NCBI GenBank assembly: GCA_963704885.1
Contig: CAVPIB010000004.1
Location: 64,001 to 128,000 of the forward strand
Direction: 5' to 3'
Origin: an uncultured Actinomycetes bacterium
Lineage (GTDB): Bacteria > Actinomycetota > UBA4738 > HRBIN12
DNA: 64,000 nucleotides
Position numbers and translations under genes: made by a program
Part shown: positions 17,358 to 30,098 of the stretch, in pieces
Numbering within the stretch: position 1 is the stretch's first letter
Layout: each line of letters opens with the position of its first letter
Notes under the pieces: generated by a model
What the model saw: the letters and a program-made list of their open reading frames with translations, nothing else
Databases searched by the model: none
Told to the model about the DNA's origin: nothing

Positions 17358-19421
17358 TCAGGACGCGCCCAGCGGTTCCAGCTGAGCCCGCAGAGCCTCC
17401 GCCTCCGTCACCGGGAGCCGGCAGACGAACCCCTCGCACACGTAGGCGGTCGCCGCTCCGTCGCGGGCCTCGCGGTCCCGCAGCAACGGGATGATCTGCT
17501 GTGCGTGCTCGTCACCAGGATGGCCGACGGCAAGCACCACGTTCGGACGGAAGACGCGCCCGGTGACCTCCTGGACCAGCGTTCGCGTGTCCGGGGAGGC
17601 GAGATCGCCCACTATCGCCACCTCCCGAGCCGGGCCGACATATAGGTCGAGCGCCGACAGCGCATGGCCGAATCCGGTCGGTGCGCCGGCCATCGCGTCG
17701 CGGACCAGCCGCAGCGCGGAGAGTCCCGCGGTCTCGTAGCCCGCGTCCCCCGTCAGGAGCGCCAGGCGGAGCAAGACCTCGGCGGCCACCGAGTTGCCCG
17801 ATGGAACGGCGTTGTCGTACAGCTCCTTCGGACGCAGGACCAGCCGCTCGGCGTCGGATGCCGTCTGGAAGAAACCACCTCGTTCATCGTCGCGGAACGA
17901 TCGGAGTAGGTCATCGGCCAACACCCGCGCCTGCTCGAACCACCGGAGCTCGAACGTCGTCTCGTACAACGTTAGACACGCCGACGCCATCAAGGCGTGG
18001 TCGTCGGCGAAGCCCGGCCTGCCCGCCACGCCGTTACGCCACGAGCGCAGCAGCCGGCCTTGGTCGTCCCGGAGGTGGGTTAGCACGAAGTCGGCGCATC
18101 GTTCGGCTGCGCTCACGAAGGCGGGTTCGCCGAACGCCCGCCCCGCTTCGGCGAACGCACCGATCGCCATCGCGTTCCATGCCGTTAGCGCTTTGTCGTC
18201 CGTCGCCGGTCGGACTCGCCCCTCGCGTATCTCGAAGAGCGTCGCGAGAGCGTCGGCGACCTCCTCGACCAGCTCATCGGGATCGAGCCCTTCAGCCGCG
18301 GCGACCTGAGCGATCGGTGCCGGCCGCCACAGGACATTCGTCCCTTCCCAGTTGCCCTCGGGCTTGGCGCCCAAGGCATGGGCGACGGGTTCGCCGACGA
18401 GTGGGGTCAGCTCCTCCCAGGTCCAGGTGAAGAACTTGCCCTCGACCCCTTCGCTATCGGCGTCTTGGGAGGACCAGAAGGCTCCCTCTGGGTGCTGCAT
18501 CTCGCGGAGGAGGTACTCGAAGGTCTGGGTCGCCACGCGCCGGTACCGGTCATCGTGCGTCACCTGCCAGGCGCGCGTGTAGAGACGTGCCAGCTGCGCG
18601 TTGTCGTAGAGCATCTTCTCGAAGTGCGGGACATGCCAGGTCTCGTCGGTCGCGTACCGCGCGAAACCGCCTCCCACGTGGTCGTAGATGCCTCCGTCGG
18701 CCATCCGATCGAGCGAGGTCGTGACGATCTCCATCGCGGGGGCCCAGTCGCGTAGGGCGCAGCGAAGCACGAACTCCAGGGTCATAGGTTGCGGAAACTT
18801 GGGGGCGCCACCGAAGCCGCCCCACCGGCTGTCGAACGCCTGATGCAGCCGAGCGAACGCCCCGCGGGTGACCGAATCATCCAGCGGCTCGTGCGACGGC
18901 GCGAGCTGTCCCACCTTCCCGATATGCGCCGAGATCTGGGCCCCGTGCTCCACGACCTCCTCTCGCCGTTCCTGCCATGCCTCGGCGATGCCTCCGAGCA
19001 CCTGGCGGAACGACGGGAGCCCGTGTCGAGGAACCGGTGGGAAGTACGTTCCGGCGAAGAAGGGCTCGCCCGTCGGCGTCAGGAAGGCCGTCAGCGGCCA
19101 CCCACCGCTCCCGCTCAAGGCCTGCGCCGCGTCCATGTATATGGCGTCCAGGTCCGGTCGCTCCTCGCGATCCACCTTGATCGAGACGAAGTGCTCGTTC
19201 ATCAGCGCTGCCGTCCGTTCGTCTTCGAATGACTCGCGTTCCATGACGTGGCACCAGTGACAGGCTGCGTAGCCGATCGACAGCAGGATCGGCCGATCTT
19301 CGCTCCTCGCCCGCTCCAGTGCCTCCGGGCCCCAGGGGTACCAGTCCACCGGATTGTGTGCGTGCTGCAGCAGGTAGGGGCTGGTCTCGTCCGCCAACCG
19401 ATTCGCCCGCCTGGTGGTCAT
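17358..19421 (-). CDS. YyaL/SPATA20-family thioredoxin-domain protein (DUF255)
   Basis: [45 protein letters not shown]. Confidence 0.95.
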
Positions 19422-19446
19422 GGCGACAGTGTCTCGCGAACGCTCT

Positions 19447-19474
19447 TCAGGCGGGGCGGGGTCCGTGCCGATGC
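19447..19474 (+). promoter_or_regulatory. Putative sigma28/WhiG-type promoter
   Basis: TCAGG-N15-GCCGATGC, 15 nt before the ATG at 19490. Confidence 0.55.
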
Positions 19475-19489
19475 AGTCACAGAGAGAAG

Positions 19490-20152
19490 ATGACAGAAGA
19501 TATCCGCGTGCTCGTCGTGGACGAGAGCCCCGGCCGAACGGAGGGGCTGATCGGCTGCATGCCGGGGGACGGTGTGCAGCTCCTGGGCAGTGTGTCGGAT
19601 GCCGGCGCGGCCCTTCGGATCCTGGATGCCGACCCGATCAACCTGATCCTCGTCGACCTGGATCGATCGGGCGGGGACGGGATCGAGACCGTCCGGATCA
19701 TCCGCGAAGGAGCGGAACGGACGCGGGTCCTCGGCATCACGCAGGAGCACGGTCCCGATCTGGCTGCCGGCGCGCTGGCTGCCGGAGCGTGCGGCGTCGT
19801 TTCGCCGGAACCAGACGGCGAGAGCATGTCATCGGCGTTCCGTCGCGCGATGGCGGGTGAGCTGGTCCTGCCGGCGGTTCACCTCTCGAGCCTGGTCGAC
19901 CGGCTCCGTGGGAACAAGGCAGCGGCGGCCGCCAGCCGGCTGGACTTCCTCACCGGCCGCGAGAGCGAGATCCTCCGGGCCCTGGCCGACGGGAACTCCA
20001 CCCTGGAGATCGCTCGTTCACTAGGGATCCGACCCATGACGGTCCAGAGCCATGTGAAGAACATCCTGGCGAAGCTCGGGGTGCATTCGAAGGTCGAGGC
20101 GGTCACGCTGGCGTGGCGCCTGGGGCTCGGGTCCGCCACGCGCAGCGCATGA
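19490..20152 (+). CDS. NarL/LuxR-family response regulator, atypical (conserved Lys absent)
   Basis: IRVLVVDE receiver; LTGRESEIL...[18 protein letters not shown]. Confidence 0.9.
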
Positions 20153-20176
20153 GCCCGCGGGGGTAGCCTTCCCGGG

Positions 20177-20848
20177 ATGATCGAAGAGGGGTCGGCCCGG
20201 GCAGCCAGGCTGGTCGTGGCCGACGCCCATCCGATCGTCCGCCGTGCCGTACGGATGTCCTGCGAGTCGACGCCCGGGTTGGAGGTCGTCGGCGAGGCTG
20301 ATTCGGTGCCCGAACTGCTCGCCGTTTGCGAGGAGCGGCGCCCGGATGTCGCGATCGTGGATATCGCGCTCCCCGACGGGTTCGAAGGGATCCGGGGGTT
20401 GACCGAGCACAAGCTGGCCGGGGCCATCGTCGTCCTGACGGATCGAGTCGAGGGGTCGGCCGTGATCGGGGCGTTGAGGCTCGGTGTGGAGGGATACCTC
20501 GTGAAGGCGTCTGCCCTCGCCACCGTAGGACCGCAGATCCGTCGGGTTCTGGCCGGCGAGCGCGTGATCTCGCCCGAGGTCGAGCAGATCGCCGTGGCCG
20601 AGCTGGGGCGGTTCGCCCGATCGGCTCGCGAGGGCAGCGAGGTTCGCGCGTCCCTCACTCCAAGGGAGTACGAGATCCTGCTGCTGGCCAGCCGAGGGCT
20701 CACCATGCGCCAGATGGCGACGAGGCTGGGCATCTCGCCTCGCACCGTGGAAACGCACATGGCCAAGCTCTATCGCAAGCTGGAGGTCCGCACTCGCGTG
20801 CAGGCCGTGTCCCGGGCCGTCTCGTTGGGCCTCATCGAGCTTCGCTGA
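20177..20848 (+). CDS. NarL/LuxR-family response regulator
   Basis: DVAIVDI, VLT, GYLVK; LTPREYEIL...TVETHMAKLYRKL HTH; TAGCCT -10 7 nt before the ATG. Confidence 0.92.
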   Translation: MIEEGSARAARLVVADAHPIVRRAVRMSCESTPGLEVVGEADSVPELLAVCEERRPDVAIVDIALPDGFEGIRGLTEHKLAGAIVVLTDRVEGSAVIGALRLGVEGYLVKASALATVGPQIRRVLAGERVISPEVEQIAVAELGRFARSAREGSEVRASLTPREYEILLLASRGLTMRQMATRLGISPRTVETHMAKLYRKLEVRTRVQAVSRAVSLGLIELR

Positions 20849-20870
20849 TCGGTTAACCGAGGGCGCCCGC

Positions 20871-20898
20871 TCAGTCCCGGAGGCTCATCGGCCGATAG
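20871..20898 (+). promoter_or_regulatory. Putative sigma28/WhiG-type promoter (leaderless)
   Basis: TCAGT-N15-GCCGATAG, exactly 7 nt before the ATG at 20906. Confidence 0.65.
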
Positions 20899-20905
20899 TG
20901 GAGGC

Positions 20906-21616
20906 ATGAGCAAACGTCCCGTCAACGGGTCGGCATCCACGCCTGCCCAACGTCGACGCCTAGGGGTGATCGTCGTGGACCCGCTGCCGGTCGTTCGGGC
21001 GGGTTTGGGTCTGCTTATCGACGACCGCCCCGACATGGAGGTCCTGGCGGAAGCCGGTACAGCGGACGAGGGGATCGAGGCGATCCAACGTGTTCGCCGA
21101 AGCATGGTCGTCGTCCTGGTCGGGCTGGGCCTCTCCGGTGACCACGACGCGTATTGGCTGATCCGAACGCTCCGCCAGCGTTACCCAACGCACGCGATCC
21201 TGGGATGCGGGGCGAACGCGGATCCCACGGCGATCAGCCGGGCGCTCTTCGTCGGGGCAGACGGCTTCGTGGACAAGAACATCGATCCGGTCGACTTCCT
21301 TCAGGCTCTGAGGAAGGCGGCCACCCGCGAGATGGTGCTGGCGACGCCGACGTCGTCGGTGGTGGGCCAGATCGTAGAAGGTATCGATCGCAGGCGCGAG
21401 GTCGAGGTGAAGCTCACCGATCGCGAACGCGAGGTCTTGGTGGTAGCCGCTGAGGGGCTCACGGCCCGCCAGATGGCCACCCGCCTCGGCGTGCGGGAAC
21501 GCACCATCACGACTCACCTCGCCCGTATCTACGGCAAGCTGGGCGTCGGCAGTCGGTTGGCGGCGATCCGGATGGCCGCCCAGTCCGGCCTCGTGAGCGT
21601 CGGCGCCCCCGAGTAG
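20906..21616 (+). CDS. NarL/LuxR-family response regulator, atypical (phosphoacceptor Asp replaced by Gly)
   Basis: VIVVDPLP, VVLVGLGL, GFVDK; LTDREREVL...TITTHLARIYGKL HTH. Confidence 0.9.
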   Translation: MSKRPVNGSASTPAQRRRLGVIVVDPLPVVRAGLGLLIDDRPDMEVLAEAGTADEGIEAIQRVRRSMVVVLVGLGLSGDHDAYWLIRTLRQRYPTHAILGCGANADPTAISRALFVGADGFVDKNIDPVDFLQALRKAATREMVLATPTSSVVGQIVEGIDRRREVEVKLTDREREVLVVAAEGLTARQMATRLGVRERTITTHLARIYGKLGVGSRLAAIRMAAQSGLVSVGAPE

Positions 21617-21629
21617 CAGCTCAGGGGTC

Positions 21630-21651
21630 GTGCGTACGTAGAAGTACGCAC
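21630..21651. promoter_or_regulatory. Palindromic operator candidate upstream of flp
   Basis: GTGCGTAC-N6-GTACGCAC, about 45 nt upstream of the TACGGT -10-like hexamer (21697-21702). Confidence 0.55.
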
Positions 21652-21765
21652 ACATCCTGCGGGAAACGCGGAATTCCCCCTGTGAGGGACTCCTCCTACG
21701 GTTGTGCATGGCGGCGAGGACGTCGCCCGGGTTCTCGCCCGCTGGTCCTTCGAGAGGAGGTGTAC

Positions 21766-21966
21766 ATGTTCCTTCGTCTCTACACCGGCACACAGGTTTG
21801 GTGGAACGATCTCAAGACTCGCGCAAGCGAGGAGGGTGGGGCCACCGCCGTGGAGTACGCGCTGATGGTCGCCCTGATCGCGGCCGTCATCATCGTTGCG
21901 GTGACCACGCTCGGCGAAAACGCCGAAGAGAAGTTCGTTGAGGTTGGTACCGCGGTCGGCACGTAG
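21766..21966 (+). CDS. flp: Flp family type IVb pilin
   Basis: G/ATAVEYALMVALIA prepilin motif; GAGGAGG SD. Confidence 0.95.
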   Translation: MFLRLYTGTQVWWNDLKTRASEEGGATAVEYALMVALIAAVIIVAVTTLGENAEEKFVEVGTAVGT

Positions 21967-21995
21967 CCGATCCTCTCCATAAGAACGAGCGGCCC

Positions 21996-22040
21996 TCGCC
22001 GGCCGCTCACTCCCGAGGCGGGGGAGTGAGGGGCCGGCGA
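21996..22040 (+). terminator. Long GC-rich hairpin after flp (terminator or mRNA stabiliser)
   Basis: TCGCCGGCC-G-CTCACTCCC pairs with GGGAGTGAG-G-GGCCGGCGA. Confidence 0.65.
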
Positions 22041-22107
22041 ACCCGTCTGGTGGAACACGCGACCGAGGGTTCACCCATCCGCCCGCAGGATCTCAAGACA
22101 CGAGGGG

Positions 22108-22134
22108 TCCAGAACACGGCTGCGGCGCCGATAA
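22108..22134 (+). promoter_or_regulatory. Putative sigma28/WhiG-type promoter for cpaB-tad genes
   Basis: TCCAG-N14-GCCGATAA (perfect sigma28 -10). Confidence 0.65.
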
Positions 22135-22170
22135 CGAACGAGCGAAGCGGTCTCGAAAGGAGACGAACAC

Positions 22171-22965
22171 ATGAGGTCTCGAGGTCTGGTGGTCGCCCTC
22201 GCCGTGCTGCTCGCCGTGATGGCAGCCGCGGCGGTCGTCCTGTACACGAACGGCATCAAGAAGGAGGCGGAGTCCGGCGGTGAGCTGACGACCGTGATCG
22301 TCGCCACCCAGAGCATCCCCGCCGGCACGAGCCTGGACGCCCTGATCGAATCGGGTGCCTTCAAAGAGTTGAACGTCCCGACGGATGCCGTCGTCCAGGG
22401 CGCGGTCACGGGCCTTTCGGAGCTCCGCGGACAAACGATCACCACGCCGATCGTGGCCAACCAGCAACTGGCGACATCCAGCCTCTCGAGCGGTGAGCAG
22501 GTCGAGGGCGGCATGCTCGGCATCTCCAAGGGTCACGAAGCCGTCACGATCAAGCTCAATGCTCCGCAGGGCGGTGATGGCCATATCCAGCGCGGCGACA
22601 ACGTCACGGTGTTCGCCACTTTCACCGGCGTCTCCGTGATCAAGGGCACGCTGGATCAGTTGACCAACCCTGCCGCCACGGGCACCACCGACCGGCAGGA
22701 CCTCCCCGACTTCACCGCCGTGCTCATCCCGACGGTGCGTGTCTTGGATGTCTCGAACCCCGGCGTGGACGAGAACGGCGAGCCCACGGGAGACGCGGTC
22801 ACGATCACCCTGGACCTCCTCCCGAAGGACGCGGCCAGCCTCGTTTACGCGCAAGAGAACGGGAAGATCTGGCTGGGCCTCCTGCCTCCGGGCGAGGAAG
22901 GACAGCAGTTCCCCGCGGTGCAGGTCCCGGTCCAGCTCCTCCTTGGGAAGAAGGCAGCCGTATGA
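22171..22965 (+). CDS. cpaB: Flp pilus assembly protein CpaB/RcpC
   Basis: N-terminal TM, SAF domain VIVATQSIPAGT, GHIQRGDNVTV, VRVL. Confidence 0.9.
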   Translation: MRSRGLVVALAVLLAVMAAAAVVLYTNGIKKEAESGGELTTVIVATQSIPAGTSLDALIESGAFKELNVPTDAVVQGAVTGLSELRGQTITTPIVANQQLATSSLSSGEQVEGGMLGISKGHEAVTIKLNAPQGGDGHIQRGDNVTVFATFTGVSVIKGTLDQLTNPAATGTTDRQDLPDFTAVLIPTVRVLDVSNPGVDENGEPTGDAVTITLDLLPKDAASLVYAQENGKIWLGLLPPGEEGQQFPAVQVPVQLLLGKKAAV

Positions 22966-24176
22966 CAGAAGCCAGCGTCGTCGCCGTCGGGACGCCGCAG
23001 TCCTTCCGCCAGCAGATCGCCAGGGCTCTGGAAGTGGAGCCCGAGGAGATCGGATGGGCGCAGTCCGCCACGGTGGCAGAGGAGCTCCTGATCAACGCCT
23101 TCAGCGCCATCGACGTGCTGGTGCTGTCGCCTGAAGTGAAGGAGCCGGACGCGCTGGGCCTCGCCGAATTCGTGGGGCGCCAGGCGCCGGGAACCGCCAT
23201 CGTCCTGGTACGCGACCACACATGGAACGGCTTGCTGCCGGCCGCTATGCGCGCGGGCATCCGCGATGTGGTCGACATGACCCAAGGGGCCGAGGAGCTC
23301 CGCGATGCAGTGGAACGGGCCGTGGCATGGGCCACGAACCTCCGGTCCGTAGGCGGTCAGACGGCCGAGTCTTCCATGCAGCAGCGTGGCCACATCCTTT
23401 CGGTGTTCTCGTCGAAGGGTGGCAGCGGCAAGACGTTCCTGACCACCAACCTGGCGGCGGCGATCGCCGACGTCACGGGACAGGACACGGCCGTCGTCGA
23501 CCTGGACACCGATATGGGCGACGTCTTCACCTACTTCGGCCGCGAGCCGATCGCCCGGGTGGACGATCTGATGGGTATCGGCGAGGGGGCCGACCACGAC
23601 AAGATCCGGGAGATCGGGGTGCCGTTCGGCGACCACCTGTGGGGTTATGGATCACCGCCGGATCCGGCGGCCGAGCCGCCCGCAGGCGAGGCGGTCGGCA
23701 AGTTCCTGAGGACGCTCCGTGCCGACTTCTCCTACGTCGTGGTGGACGCGTCGGTCGACTACTCGGACTCGGCGCTCGTCTGCTTCGACCTGTCCGACGC
23801 GATCTGCCTGGTGACTCCGCTCGACGTCGTAGGGGTCAAGCACCTGTCGAAGGCTCTCGACACGCTCCTCACGATCGGGTTGCCGCGTGAGCGGTTCCGG
23901 GTCGTCCTGAACCGAGCGGACAGCAAGGTGGGTCTCGACTCGACCGACGTGGAGCGGGTCATGAAGATCACGGTCGACGCCATGATCCCATCCAGCCGGT
24001 TGGTGCCCACGGCGTTGAACAAGGGCCGTCCCGTCGTCTTGGACGAGCCGACCTCGGACGTCTCCCAGGCCGTGCGGCACCTGGCGGCCAAGTTCACCGG
24101 GCAGTTCGGGTCGGCGATCGAGACCAACGGCGAAGGCAAGGCCGTCAAGAAGCGCAAGCGGTTCTCGAGGACCTAA
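22962..24176 (+). CDS. cpaE: Pilus assembly ATPase CpaE/TadZ (receiver-like + MinD-like)
   Basis: AMRAGIRD, KGGSGKT, VDLD..MGD, VLNRAD. Confidence 0.9.
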   Translation: MTEASVVAVGTPQSFRQQIARALEVEPEEIGWAQSATVAEELLINAFSAIDVLVLSPEVKEPDALGLAEFVGRQAPGTAIVLVRDHTWNGLLPAAMRAGIRDVVDMTQGAEELRDAVERAVAWATNLRSVGGQTAESSMQQRGHILSVFSSKGGSGKTFLTTNLAAAIADVTGQDTAVVDLDTDMGDVFTYFGREPIARVDDLMGIGEGADHDKIREIGVPFGDHLWGYGSPPDPAAEPPAGEAVGKFLRTLRADFSYVVVDASVDYSDSALVCFDLSDAICLVTPLDVVGVKHLSKALDTLLTIGLPRERFRVVLNRADSKVGLDSTDVERVMKITVDAMIPSSRLVPTALNKGRPVVLDEPTSDVSQAVRHLAAKFTGQFGSAIETNGEGKAVKKRKRFSRT

Positions 24177-24187
24177 AGGAGGCCCCA

Positions 24188-25507
24188 ATGTCCCTGGCAG
24201 ATCGACTCGCGAACGCATCCCAGCGGGATCGACTCGCCGACGTCCGCCTCCGGGTGCAGGAGCGCCTGGTCGAGGTCCTCGGTCCCCGGCTGTACGACTC
24301 AACCCTTTCGGACAACGAGCTCGAGGGCTTGGTGCACCAGCGCCTGCGCGAGTTGCTGGACGAGGAGGAAGGACCGCTCTCCTCGCAGGAGAAGCTCCTC
24401 ATCGTTCGGCAGATCGGCGACAGTGTCCTTGGTCTAGGTCCGCTGGAGCCGTTCGTCCGCGACCCCGATGTCACAGAGATCATGGTGAACGGCTGGGACA
24501 CGATCTATGTCGAGCGCGCCGGCAAGCTCTACTGGACCGGTACCAAGTTCCATGACGAGCAGCAGCTCCGACGCACGATCGACAAGATCGTCGGGAAGGT
24601 GGGACGCCGTGTCGACGAGGCGAGCCCCTACGTGGACGCGCGTCTGCCCGATGGTTCTCGTGTGAACGCGATCATCCCCCCGCTGTCGATCGACGGCCCG
24701 GCGCTCACGATCAGGAAGTTCTCCGCCGACCCATACGGGGCCGACGACCTGATCCAGTTCGGCACCATGACTTCGGCCGTGAGCCAGTTCCTGGACGCCT
24801 GCGTCAGGGGTCGCACCAACATCATGGTCTCCGGCGGAACCGGTGCCGGGAAGACGTCCACCCTGAACGTGCTTTCGTCCTTCATCCCCGACGACGAGCG
24901 CATCGTGACTATCGAGGATGCGGCCGAGCTCCGGCTCCAGCAGCCGCACGTGATCCGATTGGAGTCCCGCCCGCCGAACATCGAGGGCAAGGGCGCCGTC
25001 TCGATCCGTGATCTGGTCCGGAACTCGCTGCGCATGCGGCCCGACCGTATCGTGGTCGGCGAGGTCCGTGACGCCGCGGCGCTCGACATGCTCCAGGCGA
25101 TGAACACGGGGCACGACGGCTCGATCTCCACCATCCACTCCAACTCGCCGCGCGACTCGCTCGCTCGTTTGGAGACGATCACCCTGATGGCGGGGATGGA
25201 CCTGTCGCCACGTTCGATCCGTGAGCAGATCGCCTCAGCCATCCAGCTGATCGTTCATCAGCAGCGGCTGAAGGACGGCACGCGCCGGTTCACGCATGTC
25301 ACCGAGATCGAGGGCATGGAGGGAGAAGTCATCACCCTTCAGGACATCTTCCTGTTCGACTTCGCGGCAGGCGTCAACGACGAGGGCAAGTTCCGCGGCC
25401 GGCTCAAGTCGACCGGACTCCGGCCCAAGTTCCTTGACAAGCTCGAGGAGCGGGGCGTCTTCGTGGATCCGGAGGTCTTCGCGCTCGAATCGAAGGGGTT
25501 CGAGTGA
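24188..25507 (+). CDS. tadA: Tad secretion ATPase CpaF/TadA
   Basis: GLGPLE, DARLPDGSRVNA, GGTGAGKT, LRMRPDRIVVGEVR, MNTGHDG. Confidence 0.96.
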   Translation: MSLADRLANASQRDRLADVRLRVQERLVEVLGPRLYDSTLSDNELEGLVHQRLRELLDEEEGPLSSQEKLLIVRQIGDSVLGLGPLEPFVRDPDVTEIMVNGWDTIYVERAGKLYWTGTKFHDEQQLRRTIDKIVGKVGRRVDEASPYVDARLPDGSRVNAIIPPLSIDGPALTIRKFSADPYGADDLIQFGTMTSAVSQFLDACVRGRTNIMVSGGTGAGKTSTLNVLSSFIPDDERIVTIEDAAELRLQQPHVIRLESRPPNIEGKGAVSIRDLVRNSLRMRPDRIVVGEVRDAAALDMLQAMNTGHDGSISTIHSNSPRDSLARLETITLMAGMDLSPRSIREQIASAIQLIVHQQRLKDGTRRFTHVTEIEGMEGEVITLQDIFLFDFAAGVNDEGKFRGRLKSTGLRPKFLDKLEERGVFVDPEVFALESKGFE

Positions 25508-26520
25508 TGGCTTCTGCCGCAGCCTCGACCTTCTGGGGAAGCCCCGCCGCATTAGCGCTGTCGGTTGCCCTCGTGGTGTTGTCCGCGTTCCTGCTGGGCG
25601 TCATGCTCTTCGGGACCGCGGCCCGCAAGCGTCAGCAGCGGATCATCGGAGAGCGGATGGCGGCGGTCGGGAATCGCGGCAAGTCGTCCTCGCAGATCCC
25701 GCTGGAGAAGGGCTCCGGTGGCTGGATCCCCAGCCGCGTCACCCACTTCGGCCGTCGCTTCGCCGATTCGCGAGGGTTCAGCTCTCGACTGGATCTCGAG
25801 CTCGAGGCAGCGAGCGTCAGCCTGCGGTCGGGGGAGTTCGTGATCGTGACCGTCGCGGCCGCGTTCGGCGGCCTGATCCTGGGGTACTTGATCCTGCAGA
25901 GCCCGTGGTTGGCGCTCGGCGTCGCCGCGGCGGCCGGCGCCTCTCCCACGATGGCCCTGCGCGTCGCGCTGGATCGTAGAGCGGAGAAGCTGCGAGAGCA
26001 GCTGCCGGACGTCCTGACGATCATGGCGAGCTCGCTCCGTGCCGGACACAGCTTCCTCCAGGCGCTCGACACGGTCGCCAAGGAGATCGCTCAGCCGGCT
26101 GCCACGGAGTTCCAGCGGGTCGTGGCGGAGATCCGCCTGGGTCGAAGCGCCGAAGACGCGCTAGGGGCATTGTCCGAACGTGTCGGCAGCGCCGACTTCA
26201 AGTGGGCGGTCCTCGCCGTGAACATCCAGCGGGAGGTGGGCGGCAACCTAGCCGAGATCTTGGACAACGTGGCCGACACGCTCCGGGAGCGTGCGACCAT
26301 GAGGCGCCAGATCCGCGTGCTGACCTCTGAGGGGCGCCTCTCGGCGTGGGTCCTTGCGCTGATGCCGTTCGGGATCGGCGCTTACCTGTTCGCGACGAAC
26401 CCGGAGTACATCGGGCTGCTGTTCTCTTCGAAGATCGGCATCCTGATGGTGATCTTCGCGGGGATCATGCTCCTGCTCGGTGTGCTCTGGATGAGGAAGA
26501 TCGTGGATATCGATGTCTGA
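25504..26520 (+). CDS. tadB: Tad inner-membrane platform protein TadB
   Basis: QLPDVL..MASSLRAGHS, QREVGGNLAEIL, EGRLSA. Confidence 0.93.
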   Translation: MMASAAASTFWGSPAALALSVALVVLSAFLLGVMLFGTAARKRQQRIIGERMAAVGNRGKSSSQIPLEKGSGGWIPSRVTHFGRRFADSRGFSSRLDLELEAASVSLRSGEFVIVTVAAAFGGLILGYLILQSPWLALGVAAAAGASPTMALRVALDRRAEKLREQLPDVLTIMASSLRAGHSFLQALDTVAKEIAQPAATEFQRVVAEIRLGRSAEDALGALSERVGSADFKWAVLAVNIQREVGGNLAEILDNVADTLRERATMRRQIRVLTSEGRLSAWVLALMPFGIGAYLFATNPEYIGLLFSSKIGILMVIFAGIMLLLGVLWMRKIVDIDV

Positions 26521-27460
26521 TCTCTGGTTCCTCGTTGCGGTCGCGTGCGTGTTCTTCACCGTCATCCTGGTGGGTTTCGCGGTCGATGCGACGGTCACCG
26601 ACAAGAAGCGCGCGGTGAAGCTCTTGGAGTCGCAGGTGAGCGGGTCTTCCTCGGTAGCGGAGTCGAGCAACCTGCGCGACCGCGAGATGGCTAGGAGCTT
26701 CGGCGATCGCGTGCTGGTTCCGTTCGTCGGAGGCGCCGGGCGGGTCGCCAAGAGGGTCACGCCGCTCGACGCACGCGATCGTGTGTCGAAGAAGCTGCTC
26801 CTGGCGGGGAGCCCCCCGGGCTGGGACGCGGAGCGCGTTATCGCGTTCAAGGTGATCGGCGCCGGCGCCGGCCTCGTCGGTGGCATCGCCGTGGCGGCCG
26901 GGCTCTTGCACTTCAACGGACTTCCGATGATGGTGACGATCGCGCTGCTCGCCTTCGTCGGGTTCGTGATCCCCGACTCGATGCTCGCGCGCAAGGTGCA
27001 GGAGAGGCAGCGGGAAGTGCTCGGGACCCTGTCCGACACGCTGGACCTGCTCACGATCAGCGTCGAGGCCGGACTCTCCCTGAACGCCGCCATCGCTCAG
27101 GTCGTGCAGAACGTCCCTGGAGTTCTGTCGGCGGAGTTCGCCCGGATGCTCCAGGAGATCCAGCTGGGCGTCCCGCGCTCAGAGGCGTTCAGGCATCTCG
27201 CGGAGAGGACGGACGTCGAAGAGCTGAACAGCTTCGCTCTAGCCATGATCCAGGCGGACGTCTTCGGAGTGAGCATCGCGAGCGTCCTTCGGACGCAGGC
27301 GAGCCAGCTCCGGATCAAGCGGCGTCAGGCCGCCGAGGCGAAGGCCCAGCAGACGCCTGTGAAGATCGTCTTCCCGCTGATCCTCTGCATCCTGCCGGCC
27401 CTGTTCATCGTGATCATCGGTCCTGGAGCGATCCGGATCATGGACACGGTTCTCAAGTAG
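26513..27460 (+). CDS. tadC: Tad inner-membrane platform protein TadC
   Basis: DLLTISVEAGLS, QADVFGVSIA, KIVFPL..CILPALF. Confidence 0.93.
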   Translation: MSDLWFLVAVACVFFTVILVGFAVDATVTDKKRAVKLLESQVSGSSSVAESSNLRDREMARSFGDRVLVPFVGGAGRVAKRVTPLDARDRVSKKLLLAGSPPGWDAERVIAFKVIGAGAGLVGGIAVAAGLLHFNGLPMMVTIALLAFVGFVIPDSMLARKVQERQREVLGTLSDTLDLLTISVEAGLSLNAAIAQVVQNVPGVLSAEFARMLQEIQLGVPRSEAFRHLAERTDVEELNSFALAMIQADVFGVSIASVLRTQASQLRIKRRQAAEAKAQQTPVKIVFPLILCILPALFIVIIGPGAIRIMDTVLK

Positions 27461-27478
27461 CGCCTTCTCCGTTCCGAC

Positions 27479-27507
27479 TCAAGCTTTCGGTGGTTCCGAG
27501 CCGATAC
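27479..27507 (+). promoter_or_regulatory. Putative sigma28/WhiG-type promoter (leaderless)
   Basis: TCAAG-N16-GCCGATAC, exactly 7 nt before the ATG at 27515. Confidence 0.65.
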
Positions 27508-27514
27508 CTCCTTC

Positions 27515-27667
27515 ATGCGGAGTACGGATCGCACGCTCGATCGGATCCTGGAGGCGTTCGCCGATGCGGTGGCCGCCGCCGAGTTCGAGAAGGCCGAAGG
27601 ATGGCTGGCCGTGGCCAGGTGGGCCCAGGGAGCCAGCGAGACCTCGACACCCGCTCCCGTCCGCTGA
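27515..27667 (+). CDS. 50-aa small helical protein (not in ORF track)
   Basis: MRSTDRTLDRILEAFADAVAAAEFEKAEGWLAVARWAQGASETSTPAPVR; GC3-rich codons and a promoter motif. Confidence 0.65.
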   Translation: MRSTDRTLDRILEAFADAVAAAEFEKAEGWLAVARWAQGASETSTPAPVR

Positions 27668-27794
27668 AGCGAGCCCTCTCGGGGCCGAAGGACGTAGGTC
27701 GTCGGTCGCATTGCAGCCTCCCCCAGCCATGCCCTAGACTCTCGGCTGTCCGGATGGTCCGTTGGGACCAAACGGATCGAGAGAAAGGCGTGTG

Positions 27795-28040
27795 ATGAAG
27801 CGCATCGGGTTCCTGCTCGCCACGGCAAGTGTCTTCGTGCTGTGCGTGGCCGCACCCGCTCTCGCTGGCGATGGTTCCTCCGTGCCGAACAGGCCGGGCG
27901 GTCCCGGGGTCAGCGGGTCGGGCGGCACCGCCTTCACGGGCGCGAACGTGTCGACGAGCATGATGTACCTGGTCGCGTTCGTGGTGGTCGGTGCGTTGGC
28001 CGTGTACTTCGGCCGGCGCCGCACGCTCGCCGCGCGCTAG
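27795..28040 (+). CDS. Small secreted protein with sortase-like sorting signal
   Basis: Signal peptide ending APALA, G/P/S linker, TAFTG motif, TM helix, RRR tail; GAAAGG SD. Confidence 0.75.
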   Translation: MKRIGFLLATASVFVLCVAAPALAGDGSSVPNRPGGPGVSGSGGTAFTGANVSTSMMYLVAFVVVGALAVYFGRRRTLAAR

Positions 28041-28054
28041 ACGCGATCACCCAC

Positions 28055-28083
28055 GAACAGGCTCCTCACGGGGCCTGTTCTTT
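28055..28083 (+). terminator. Rho-independent terminator between convergent genes
   Basis: GAACAGGCTCC-TCAC-GGGGCCTGTTC-TTT. Confidence 0.75.
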
Positions 28084-28119
28084 CATGTCCGACGTCGCGG
28101 AGCATCACTGCCGATCGCT

Positions 28120-30098
28120 TCACGTGACCTTGTCGATCAGTGAACGCCACAGACGCACCGGGAGCGACGGAGCGAACGTCGTCCGCAGGTCGAGGTTCCC
28201 CGCAGGCATCCCGTCGAACACGAGCGATCTGCCCTGGCGGGACAAGCCGTCGCTCCATGACGTGAATCCGCATCCCCTCAGGGGCCTGGATCACGATGCG
28301 AACGCGCGCCGGGCGGATAGTGGATTGCCCCACGAACGTGAGCCGGTATGCACCACCCGTGTTCGAGCCGACCCATGCGTCCGTGAGCAGGAGGTCGACC
28401 TCGATGGTCGCCGTGTCGCCCGACGGCGTTCTCACGTAGTCCTCGAAGTAGGGGAACCCGTCGGTCGAGTACCTCTCCAGCTCCACCGGCTCGCCGTTGC
28501 GCGTCCCGTCCCGCAGGATGCATCCTCTGTCGCAGTAGAGATCGACGACGGCGACGTTCTCACCCGGCTTGGTGGAGTAGGTCTTGTACGGTCCGATCAC
28601 GTACGGCGGGTAGCCTGAGGTCGGCGAGTCGTTCCTGCAGATCGGTGCGCAGGCTCGCCGTCGCGGTTCCTCCGGGACCGAGGTGCACCTCGTAGGTGAC
28701 CGTTCGCTCCTGGTAGAAGTCGAGCTTGGTTCCGGAGGCACTGTTGGTGATCACCGAGACGACGTCGGTTCCCTGGGGATCGAACGCGCCCCCAGCCGCA
28801 GTGAGCTCAAGTCCGGACTGCATGTCGGGTTCGGCGCTCCACACCTTCACGTGTCCGTCGTCGAACGCGCGTAGCATCGCCCTCTCGCGCCGGAGGTCGT
28901 CTCCCTCATCCGACAGGAACGCGTCGAGGACGGCCTGGGCCACCCGTCCCAGCACCAGCTTGCGCTGCTCGTTGGTGTCGAAGAGCGCGTAGGCCTCGTT
29001 CGTGACGAAGCGGACAACGGTGCGGTCCGTCAACTCGATCTCGGTCCCCCTGACCGTGACAGGGCCCGTCACCCGCATCAGCGCCTGAAGGGCGAACGGA
29101 TCGGCCACGATGACCCCGTCTAGCTCCTCGCCGGTCGCCCCGGCATAGGAGAGCCAGAGCGCTTCGGCCGCCAGGGGGAAGTCCGGCGTCATGTTGGCGT
29201 TCACCCAGAAGCCCACGCCGGTCCGGTAGTAGTCGAAGTTGGTCGAGTACTCGGGAGACGGGGACACGTGCCGATCCAGGTCGAGGATGGGTAGCGATTG
29301 GATCGGCCGAAACTCCGACAGATCTAGACGGCCATCGTCGACCGTGAGGATGGCGTAGGCGCCGATCAGCCCTCCCGTGCCTCGCAGCTCCGCGGGGTTC
29401 GAGGCACCGAAGAGGTAGTGCTTCGGCTCATCCGCCCCGAGGAAGGAAGGCAGCTCCCGCAGGATGGTCGCTCCCGCCAGCAGCTGTCGATGCGTTCGCT
29501 CCAACTCCCTCAGCGCCTCATCGCGGGCCGAGGCGACGGGCGGAAGCACCAATGAAGTCGGGGCTGCACGCAGCGTCTCGAGTGCATCTGCAGCGAGGAT
29601 CTCGGCCTGAGTGACGGCCTTCGCCAGGCCTGCCAGCCGCTCCAGGGGTATCCCGTCGGTCGCGGGGGCCAAGGCGCCCAGGCCTCCCGGAAGGTCGTTC
29701 ACGGCATCATCCAAGAGGGAGGCCGCCTTCGAGGTCGTCTCTCCCGCCTCAGCGATCGCGCGGACGGCGTCGGCGGTGTTGCCCAGCCACGGGACGGCTC
29801 CTGCGAGGCCGATCAGCGATGAGTCCGCGGCTCCGGAGAAAGCGCCCTCAGCGACATCGAACGCCTGCGCGGCCTCTTGGGAGCGACCGGCGACGAGCGC
29901 CGACTTCCCTCGCTCCAGCGCGTCGCGTCCGCGCTGGAGCTCCGACCGGATACCCGGTGCGGCGACCGCAAGGGCCGCGAGGAGCACGACCAACGCGGTC
30001 CCAAGGGCTGCCAGCCCGAGCATGACCCATCGACGCCATCGATGGGGGCGAGGCGGCGTCCGTTCGGTCGCTCCGGAGGGCTCAGGGGGTGTCTGCAT
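28120..30098 (-). pseudogene. DUF4012 domain protein with two +1 frameshifts (about 28637 and 28266), real or sequencing error
   Basis: NPAELRGTGGLIG, NMTPDFP, DGVIVADP, TKLDFYQ; domain continues in a second frame (NDSPTSGYPPYVIGP) and a third (FTSWSDGL...LWRSLIDKVT). Confidence 0.8.

Follow-up and report, generated by a model that had tools for sequence, protein, structure and literature searches.

A Flp/Tad pilus locus with predicted WhiG-type promoters and a composite pilin operator in an uncultured actinobacterial lineage

Results

Three orphan response regulators beside a Flp/Tad pilus locus

We analysed a Flp/Tad (type IVc) pilus locus, together with the three response regulator genes that precede it, in a stretch of 64,000 nucleotides (nt) from an uncultured Actinomycetes bacterium (GenBank assembly GCA_963704885.1, contig CAVPIB010000004.1). 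This whole stretch, hereafter the window, corresponds to G000:C4:64001-128000, where G000 denotes the source genome and C4 the contig; the genome comprises 3.0 Mb in 20 contigs with 67% G+C and is 97% complete. A first-pass annotation had described the locus as a Tad pilus cluster lying next to three regulators without an adjacent kinase. The gene identities hold by Pfam, with the Tad/Flp core of Flp, CpaB/RcpC, TadZ/CpaE, TadA/CpaF, TadB and TadC being present, and the remark on the kinase was borne out as well: no kinase domain was found by Pfam among the flanking genes scanned, and the regulators are orphan. We refer to them as RR1, RR2 and RR3.

19490-20152, plus strand: RR1, NarL-type response regulator (REC+GerE) without the conserved Lys (Pfam, NarL alignment)
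20177-20848, plus strand: RR2, NarL-type response regulator (REC+GerE) with Asp, Thr and Lys kept (Pfam, pocket columns)
20906-21616, plus strand: RR3, aspartate-less NarL-type regulator (REC+GerE) (Pfam, NarL alignment)
21766-21966, plus strand: flp, major pilin (Pfam Flp_Fap, PF04964, 47.4 bits)
22171-22965, plus strand: cpaB (Pfam RcpC, PF16976)
22962-24176, plus strand: cpaE/tadZ-like ATPase (Pfam CbiA/ParA, PF01656)
24188-25507, plus strand: cpaF/tadA ATPase (Pfam T2SSE, PF00437)
25504-26520, plus strand: tadB (Pfam T2SSF, PF00482)
26513-27460, plus strand: tadC (Pfam T2SSF, PF00482)
27515-27667, plus strand: orf50, conserved 50-amino-acid cytoplasmic protein of unknown function (orthologs)

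Four sigma-28-type motifs and a single WhiG factor

The first-pass annotation had also noticed four bipartite motifs of the sigma-28 type. All four can be read directly from the sequence, and each of them is intergenic and in sense orientation to the gene that follows. The -10 element that had been ascribed to RR2 is of a different, TANNNT type and is present too.

19447-19474, plus strand: site 1, predicted WhiG-type promoter of RR1; TCA at 19447-19449, 17 nt, GCCGATGC at 19467-19474; ATG at 19490
20164-20169, plus strand: TAGCCT, TANNNT-type -10, followed after 7 nt by the RR2 ATG; promoter predicted to be leaderless and independent of WhiG
20871-20898, plus strand: site 2, predicted WhiG-type promoter of RR3; TCA at 20871-20873, 17 nt, GCCGATAG at 20891-20898; 7 nt; ATG at 20906
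22108-22134, plus strand: site 3, predicted WhiG-type promoter of the cpaB-tadC operon; TCC at 22108-22110, 16 nt, GCCGATAA at 22127-22134; ATG at 22171
27479-27507, plus strand: site 4, predicted WhiG-type promoter of orf50; TCA at 27479-27481, 18 nt, GCCGATAC at 27500-27507; 7 nt; ATG at 27515

In two cases, sites 2 (RR3) and 4 (orf50), the ATG lies 7 nt past the -10 element, as had been claimed. The -10 consensus quoted for sigma-28-type promoters is of the GCCGATAA type with an invariant central CGA (PMC8325347; preprint bioRxiv 10.64898/2026.01.14.699351), a description that fits GCCGATGC, GCCGATAG, GCCGATAA and GCCGATAC alike. For the -35 element, TAAA, T(A/C)AA or CTCA at 15-17 nt from the -10 is expected; sites 1, 2 and 4 read cTCAg or cTCAa at a distance that agrees with this, while site 3 reads TCCA (in full TCCAGAA, followed by the -10 GCCGATAA). 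The forms given for WhiG/FliA promoters are T(A/C)AA-N16-GCCGATAA and CTCA-N16-17-GCCGAACT (bioRxiv 10.64898/2026.01.14.699351).

A sigma-28-family factor, on which the proposal depended, is indeed encoded in the genome. The only gene of the FliA/WhiG family lies at G000:C4:464342-465196 on the minus strand, and its product scores 268 bits against TIGR02479 (FliA_WhiG, cut-off 189.6) and 354.4 bits against NF004935, the NCBI WhiG equivalog (cut-off 343). The next-best sigma-family matches reach 113 and 106 bits, leaving WhiG alone over the FliA/WhiG cut-off. Its gene is flanked by xerC (NCBIfam) and, judging from names read by eye from the translations, an M23 peptidase gene; further out, by the same reading, dprA and a comM-like gene lie on one side and rpsB-tsf-pyrH-frr-cdsA on the other, with whiG upstream of rpsB, a context that we take to be that of whiG in Streptomyces. 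Among 41 genomes of the order, G000 included, NF004935 matches 39, of which 36 score over the cut-off. Flagellin (PF00669) had no match in the 97% complete genome. Since the four sites fit the published consensus forms and WhiG is the sole factor of its family here, we consider it very probable that they are promoters read by WhiG.

Genome-wide frequency of the motif

To place the motif against background, we used gene calls from a simple and crude codon-usage caller made for this analysis (2778 genes, 88% coding), and scanned 2778 upstream regions with a total of 400,431 nt. The genome holds 342 copies of GCCGATA on both strands. Among the 61 intergenic copies, 37 aim at a gene within 200 nt, versus 20 for the opposite orientation. 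A TCA is found 16-18 nt 5' of GCCGATA at 9 of 41 upstream sense sites versus 5 of 281 coding sites, and over 17 other offsets examined at the same 41 sites it occurs only 6 times in all. The full pattern TCA-N16-18-GCCGAT[AG] occurs 22 times in upstream regions, versus 1, 2, 2, 3, 4 and 7 times at six control spacings, corresponding to an approximately sevenfold enrichment; three of the 22 sites fall within this 8-kb locus. With [ACT]CCGATA as -10, 8 sites compare with 0-4 at control spacings. The motif is above background in the TCA form (22 versus 1-7) and not in the TCC form (10 versus 5-13). GCCGAC as -10 is not enriched either (22 versus 8-18), and since the TCC -35 and the GCCGAC, GCCGAA and GCCGAG -10 variants showed no enrichment genome-wide, they were left out of the promoter class. 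A scan with an E. coli-type sigma-70 consensus returned 0 sites, this consensus being uninformative for an actinobacterium of 67% G+C.

Candidate targets elsewhere were collected from 43 sites with any base before CCGAT[AG], and Pfam was run on 34 downstream genes and on 3 behind TCC-type sites. Among these genes are one for a PAS-GGDEF-EAL protein, a pilin-like N_methyl gene, and genes for several histidine kinases, an OmpR-type regulator and an M23 peptidase; the remaining candidates are housekeeping-like, and chance may account for their matches. Outside the window, a type IVa-like pilus cluster (G000:C4:346101-356269) encodes PilT, PilC, a PilB that contains an MshEN domain, three N_methyl pilin-like proteins and an A24 peptidase; the pilin-like candidate belongs to it, and a TCA-N-GCCGATG site lies 79 nt before the first pilin-like gene. 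Separately, a 201-amino-acid gene without a Pfam family is present in two copies (G000:C4:675764-676369 and C5:4574-5179), each preceded at 4 nt by the same TCAAG...CGCCGATGA site; it is a repeated element or an assembly duplicate.

Conservation of the motifs in related loci

Near relatives were represented by 20 fetched loci, of which we compared nine from the same genus (genus 1) and one from a sister genus (L043, genome G017). Gene order is kept in all of these. All four sites (RR1, RR3, cpaB and orf50) persist in orthologous loci, with spacers that vary in sequence. Site 1 reads ttCAGg...tGCCGATG in the 9 of 9 orthologous loci shown. Site 2 reads cTCA(g/t)...GGCCGATA(G/C), with the ATG 6-7 nt on, in all but one of the 9 genus-level loci shown; the RR3 motif of G017 is placed further upstream, and the more distant L046 (G022) has no such motif before RR3. 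At site 3, a gTCCAGAA-like -35 is combined with (G/C/T)CCGATA(A/C/G) in 9 of 10 genus-level loci, among them L035 with TTCAGG as -35; L037 has lost the -10. Site 4 reads cTCAAG...CCGATACC followed by 7 nt and ATG in 8 of 9 loci with the open reading frame (ORF); L043 has GCCGACAC at this position, still followed by 7 nt and ATG, and L039 has lost orf50 while the motif and the downstream secreted-protein gene are kept. The -10 of RR2, gggTAGCCTtcc, is conserved in the genus-level orthologs shown. Since the gap of 6-7 nt between -10 and ATG is kept across species, the mRNAs of RR3 and orf50 are predicted to be leaderless. GGAGG-like bases between -10 and ATG would lie too near the ATG for a ribosome-binding site.

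A wider set of 80 loci was obtained from a scan with the RR3-ortholog alignment. All are from metagenome-assembled genomes of uncultured organisms, partly the same genomes as those in the 41-genome set of the order; 79 bear the title Actinomycetota, Actinomycetes or Actinobacteria bacterium, and the remaining one that of 'bacterium' alone. The order RR1-RR2-RR3-flp is retained across most of the 80 loci, and the machinery gene order from cpaB to tadC is kept in relatives. In this set we counted TCA-N15-18-NCCGAT[AG] within 150 nt upstream of each gene, a pattern with a background of 0.016 per stretch of that size.

RR1: motif upstream in 61 of 66 loci
RR2: motif upstream in 0 of 69 loci
RR3: motif upstream in 64 of 77 loci
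flp: motif upstream in 1 of 62 loci
cpaB: motif (TCA-type) upstream in 5 of 49 loci
cpaE: motif upstream in 1 of 52 loci
cpaF: motif upstream in 1 of 51 loci
tadB: motif upstream in 0 of 46 loci
tadC: motif upstream in 0 of 34 loci

The spacer measures 17 nt in 59 of 64 motif sites. When 69 RR3 upstream sites are anchored on CCGATA alone, T, C and A appear at positions -21 to -19 in 66, 57 and 59 sites, G appears at -1 in 61, and gCTCA emerges; the -35 element thus does not arise from the way the search pattern was built. Promoters of the WhiG type ahead of RR1 and RR3 are therefore an old and stable feature of the lineage. For the cpaB site, conservation in orthologous loci is the only line of support, and direct WhiG control of cpaB would hold mainly for this genus; the cpaB site and the orf50 unit belong to this genus and its nearest kin.

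Most relatives carry approximately 1.7 kb between RR3 and flp with a 500-amino-acid ORF on the opposite strand that has no Pfam match (e.g. L036:2514-4016, minus strand). This insert is absent from the window, L037 and L043. In G001, the whole RR1-RR3-flp-tad locus is present in two copies on contigs C15 and C4 (L102 and L101).

Phosphorylation pockets of the three regulators

RR1 and RR3 were aligned to NarL (1A04), and the pocket residues of all three regulators were compared with those of their orthologs. Both motif-carrying regulators had been described as having broken pockets, the middle one as keeping Asp, Thr and Lys, and the orthologs agree with this description. RR1 has Pro at the position of the conserved Lys in the NarL alignment, and Lys is found in 0 of 9 orthologs (Pro or another residue instead), with Asp kept in 8 of 9. 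Its acidic pair is Asp-Glu in the window and degenerate in 7 of 9 orthologs, being intact only in the window and L043. In RR3, D59 and S87 of NarL are both replaced by Gly and the second acidic residue by Pro, with Lys retained; among its orthologs, Gly occupies the phospho-Asp position in 13 of 14 (one has Ser) and the Thr/Ser position in 14 of 14, and Lys is kept in 13 of 14. All 12 RR2 orthologs have the Asp and the Lys, and 11 of them have Thr/Ser. Here Asp-Ala replaces the acidic pair and the pocket is otherwise kept, hence largely intact. The three regulators share a mutual identity of 28-33%, and RR3 is the best conserved of them, with 85-88% identity within the genus.

In Streptomyces, WhiG controls the atypical regulator WhiI, which pairs with BldM as a heterodimer, and the BldM homodimer site is a 16-bp 7-2-7 palindrome (PMC4125116). 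In WhiI the pocket is devoid of the Lys and of one Asp in the acidic pair (PMC4125116), which is also what RR1 shows, given the absence of Lys from all nine orthologs and the degenerate acidic pair in seven. The defect of RR3, Gly in place of the phospho-Asp, differs from the WhiI type. Orthology of RR1 to WhiI found no support in a proxy test that used no authentic WhiI or BldM sequences: outside the order, RR1 scores no more than 95.8 bits (35% identity) with its best matches, versus 99 bits for paralogs of its own genome, and its 8 best matches in three phylum genomes of 7.5-9.2 Mb all have canonical pockets and no sigma-28 motif. Judging from these scores and pockets, RR1 may work like WhiI, yet orthology is not supported.

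A composite operator upstream of the pilin genes

The flp gene has no WhiG motif and carries a composite operator instead, a feature that the first-pass annotation missed.

21635-21674, plus strand: composite operator; palindrome TACGTAGAAGTACGCA (7-2-7, 16 bp) at 21635-21650, 11 nt, box GGAAACGCGGAAT at 21662-21674
21697-21702, plus strand: TACGGT, TANNNT-type hexamer predicted as the -10 of flp, 22 nt past the box

In its general form the operator consists of a 16-bp 7-2-7 palindrome (ideal TACGTAGnnCTACGTA), exactly 11 nt, and then GGAAAnnnGGAAT, a GGAA direct-repeat box that adjoins the palindrome at this fixed distance. In 62 related flp upstream regions, the palindrome is found in 61 (at most 2 mismatches) and the box in 56, and the gap measures 11 nt in 55 of the 55 with both. 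A cTACCGT-like hexamer, read by eye, stands at about the same distance past the box in most related loci. The leader of approximately 60 nt after TACGGT is conserved and, as Rfam gave no match at E<=1 over positions 19000-28600, belongs to no known RNA family.

G000 contains the composite operator in two copies only, before flp and before an unlinked tadE-tadG pair. The second copy (C4:876372-876411, minus strand) is followed after 22 nt by TAGCGT and precedes the genes of a TadE-like protein (PF07811, 64 bits) and a TadG-like VWA protein (PF13400), minor pilins that are encoded outside the window at G000:C4:874431-876307. At 3 mismatches or fewer, 20 of the 41 genomes have 1-4 copies, and the backwards pattern matches in none. 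Twelve further composite sites were sampled from relatives: 8 before tadE-tadG orthologs, 1 before a second flp and 3 before nothing recognisable. RR3 orthologs, which at more than 290 bits are well apart from paralogs at 244 bits or less, occur in 25 of the 41 genomes; in a cross-tabulation the operator is present in 18 of the 25 genomes with an RR3 ortholog versus 2 of the 16 without. CpaB relatives are found in 30 of the 41. G020, G025 and G028 have Tad genes, with neither an RR3 ortholog nor the composite operator, and in G020 (L053, position 2643 of the reoriented locus) a sigma-28-type motif lies 48 nt before flp, which may represent direct wiring without the regulators. The genome tallies (CpaB, WhiG, composite operator, RR3 and RR1 best matches) include G008, G029, G037, G041, G057, G085 and G104 (unpublished), and no conclusion depends on these seven by themselves.

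The composite operator would be the likeliest point of action of the locus regulators. Binding by RR1, RR2 or RR3 is a tentative proposal that we place somewhat short of probable. As its halves are unlike and rigidly spaced, the operator suggests a pair of different binders next to each other, which is compatible with a heteromeric arrangement; binding of the locus regulators as heteromers is nonetheless unlikely in our estimate.

Sites of NarL comprise two inverted 7-2-7 heptamers that start with TAC and lie 2 bp apart. The palindrome described here shares the inverted heptamers starting with TAC and their 2-bp separation, whereas its half-site sequence differs and a GGAA direct-repeat box adjoins it at a fixed 11 nt.

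Orf50, a small secreted protein and accessory genes

Orf50 has 9 orthologs with 15 invariant residues, and 147 protein clusters match it in metagenomes at E<=0.001. The copy in the window has no Pfam family and no PDB match beyond one at E 1.7, and weak DUF6931 matches were obtained for 2 of the 9 orthologs (best E 0.012). We considered RsiG, FlgM and other known families; given these search results, orf50 is not recognisable as any of them. Downstream of orf50 the window contains the following features.

27795-28040, plus strand: small secreted protein gene, 81 amino acids (translations of 11 orthologs)
28055-28080, plus strand: terminator-like hairpin (consensus scan)

The 81-amino-acid protein has no Pfam match. 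In 11 loci it shows a signal peptide, a conserved GGTAFTG(A/S) motif near the C-terminus, a hydrophobic stretch and an RRR tail, and its C-terminal end looks like a cell-wall sorting signal. LAxTG is the sortase-E motif. The gene may be co-transcribed with orf50 as the distal gene of the unit.

The upstream neighbour of the locus is a DsbH-like thioredoxin gene on the opposite strand. The sole A24 prepilin peptidase seen in the genome sits in the PilB/PilC cluster; a dedicated TadV was not searched for. A second cpaF/tadB/tadC set is present at G000:C1:520902-523531, with a cpaF that is 54% identical, and two more flp paralogs lie at C9:6308-6487 and C11:8867-9046, each 50% identical to the flp of the window.

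Discussion

Our analysis suggests a two-tier circuit, which we regard as probable, in which two atypical regulators, together with the machinery operon in this genus, are transcribed by WhiG, and NarL-type regulators act on the pilin promoters. In the first tier WhiG, the sole sigma-28-family factor of an organism without flagellin, would transcribe from gCTCA-N17-GCCGAT(A/G) promoters. Its targets would be the Lys-less RR1, the Asp-less RR3 (leaderless in this genus), the cpaB-tadC operon (in this genus) and the leaderless orf50, with RR2, whose pocket is largely intact, using its own leaderless promoter of the TANNNT type. In the second tier the pilin genes, flp here and tadE-tadG(VWA) elsewhere, lack a WhiG promoter and would be transcribed from a TANNNT -10 behind the fixed-distance composite operator, to which the NarL-type regulators of the locus would bind. 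RR1 and RR3 would not be controllable by normal phosphorylation, and RR2 may bring in a phosphorylation signal. Such an arrangement would form a feed-forward loop, with WhiG making the regulators and the regulators licensing pilin synthesis.

Several observations weigh against this proposal. The -35 is TCA or CTCA and not TAAA, even though it matches consensus forms quoted in a recent preprint (bioRxiv 10.64898/2026.01.14.699351), and the TCC form found at the cpaB site is not enriched in the genome. The TCA-type motif precedes cpaB in only 5 of the 49 wider loci. A search for the c-di-GMP motif of RsiG, E(X)3S(X)2R(X)3[Q/H](X)3D, in strict and relaxed form and in called genes and six frames, gave no credible ORF, so the suggested check for rsiG was negative; the search covered the 97% complete genome except for 16 kb, and a divergent RsiG would escape it. 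In seven of the genomes that have an RR3 ortholog, the operator is absent at 3 mismatches or fewer, and another NarL-type regulator with an intact-looking receiver is encoded approximately 3.3 kb downstream of tadE-tadG (C4:871951-872598, minus strand), which makes it a rival candidate binder. Finally, the related genomes are kin and their counts are not independent events, and thus the counts describe the pattern and do not test it.

One alternative is that the WhiG promoters are real but another regulator binds the operator, in which case RR1-RR3 would control other genes and their adjacency to the Tad genes would be conserved synteny only. The regulator gene near tadE-tadG and the 7 of 25 RR3 genomes without an operator speak for it. 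Against it stand the order RR1-RR2-RR3-flp, kept across most of the 80 loci, and the location of the operator, usually a few hundred bases to approximately 1.7 kb from RR3. Moreover, the operator tracks RR3 (18 of 25 versus 2 of 16) and not Tad genes as such, as judged from G020, G025 and G028, and GerE/NarL-type dimers such as BldM have sites with the geometry of a 7-2-7 palindrome (PMC4125116). We consider this alternative unlikely.

Less probable still is the proposal that RR1, RR2 and RR3 combine into various heterodimers, with homology to WhiI/BldM, as an ancestral form of the Streptomyces sporulation module that controls piliation in place of sporulation. Its appeal lies in the parallels to Streptomyces: RR1 is an orphan, predicted to be WhiG-dependent and devoid of the conserved Lys, as is WhiI, and the pocket of RR2 is largely intact and its promoter WhiG-independent, as in the case of BldM (PMC4125116). 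The three regulator genes also stay together in most related loci, and two unlike operator halves at a fixed 11 nt would fit two different DNA-binding partners. However, the regulators share only 28-33% identity, RR1 relatives outside the order are no closer than its own paralogs, canonical regulators that lack a sigma-28 motif make up its 8 best matches in three large phylum genomes, and the palindromic half of the operator suggests a homodimer.

That the bipartite motif is no WhiG promoter at all, reflecting instead another sigma factor, the binding site of another protein, or chance, is highly improbable: the departure of the -35 from TAAA and the lack of enrichment of the TCC form favour it, and are outweighed in our view by WhiG as sole FliA/WhiG-family match over the cut-off (next 113 and 106 bits), a -10 with the sigma-28 GCCGATA(A) core, a spacer fixed at 17 nt and variable in sequence, a promoter-like orientation and start-codon distance, the approximately sevenfold enrichment, and frequencies of 0.83-0.92 for RR3 and RR1 over a background of 0.016 per stretch.

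Within the two-tier circuit, the closest comparison for the regulators is the Streptomyces WhiG-WhiI/BldM system (PMC4125116). Shared features are an orphan, Lys-less regulator behind a WhiG promoter (RR1), a neighbouring regulator with an intact pocket and a WhiG-independent promoter (RR2), and a 16-bp 7-2-7 palindrome as candidate target site. The differences lie in the output, which here is pilin genes and not sporulation genes, in a third regulator (RR3) that is Asp-less and predicted to be WhiG-dependent, in the adjacency of all three genes, and in the site sequence, TACGTAGnnCTACGTA here as opposed to TCACcCgnncGgGTGA in Streptomyces.

For the pilus, the closest comparison is Rubrobacter radiotolerans, a non-flagellated unicellular actinobacterium, in which a switch, (RsiG)2-(c-di-GMP)2-WhiG, governs a type IV pilus cluster with mapped transcription start sites (TSSs). 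Of its 12 TSS-verified WhiG promoters, 3 lie in the type IV pilus cluster and 5 before diguanylate cyclase or phosphodiesterase genes (PMC8325347). Similarly, sigma-28-type sites occur here in pilus clusters and before a GGDEF/EAL gene, and the PilB/PilT/PilC cluster of G000 has such a predicted site before a pilin-like gene. In contrast to R. radiotolerans, with its named pil genes and mapped TSSs, the target here is a Tad/Flp locus with cpaB, tadZ, tadA, tadB and tadC; two regulators are interposed, with pilin genes that lack the motif; no RsiG motif was found; and the -35 is TCA rather than TAAA (PMC8325347).

WhiG promoters have been predicted before response regulators, BldM-like ones included, before type IV pilus genes and before c-di-GMP enzymes in several actinobacterial families, which makes BldM-like regulators predicted WhiG targets outside Streptomyces (bioRxiv 10.64898/2026.01.14.699351). 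The words Tad, Flp and Thermoleophil are absent from the main text of that preprint, which describes no operator on pilin genes; its Tables S4-S6 may bear on novelty. In other bacteria, Flp/Tad loci are under two-component control, by PprAB in Pseudomonas aeruginosa and by a system with an OmpR-type regulator next to flp/tad in Pectobacterium (PMC3767616). The response regulators of those systems, which activate flp/tad, are encoded beside the Tad locus, as are the regulators here. Those systems are canonical kinase-regulator pairs, whereas the regulators described here are orphans, with degenerate pockets in two of three and a synthesis that would depend on an alternative sigma factor. Our literature search found no paper linking WhiG to Tad/Flp pili; among the papers listed, the only one in which WhiG, Flp and Tad occur together deals with a biofilm transcriptome and is unrelated. 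Established are the control of type IV pili by WhiG in Rubrobacter, through TSS mapping, and WhiG control of an atypical paired regulator in Streptomyces. New are the Tad/Flp locus as a predicted WhiG target, the pilin operator, and a module of three regulators, one of them Asp-less, that is conserved over dozens of species.

It is tempting to go further and to view RR1-RR2-RR3 and the operator as an ancient WhiG module, in which WhiG-made atypical receivers, one without the Lys and one without the Asp, would pair with a phosphorylatable partner next to them on DNA and so license the making of pilin, and possibly as the forerunner of WhiI-BldM, pili being the original WhiG output in non-flagellated Actinomycetota. 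We regard this as speculative and quite improbable; if true, the sporulation heterodimer of Streptomyces would descend from a pilus-control circuit with the same logic as WhiI-BldM.

At its more modest reach, the two-tier circuit would carry the known connection of WhiG with pili over to another type of pilus, Tad/Flp, and would provide a case of predicted sigma-factor-dependent synthesis of phosphorylation-incompetent regulators outside Streptomyces. With dozens of species-level examples at hand, promoter and operator are defined by phylogenetic footprints rather than from one sequence, and a sharply defined 40-bp operator with three candidate binders is testable with purified proteins, no culture being needed. 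Beside sporulation in Streptomyces and pili in Rubrobacter, the locus would represent a third, well-conserved wiring of WhiG, in a lineage that is uncultured.

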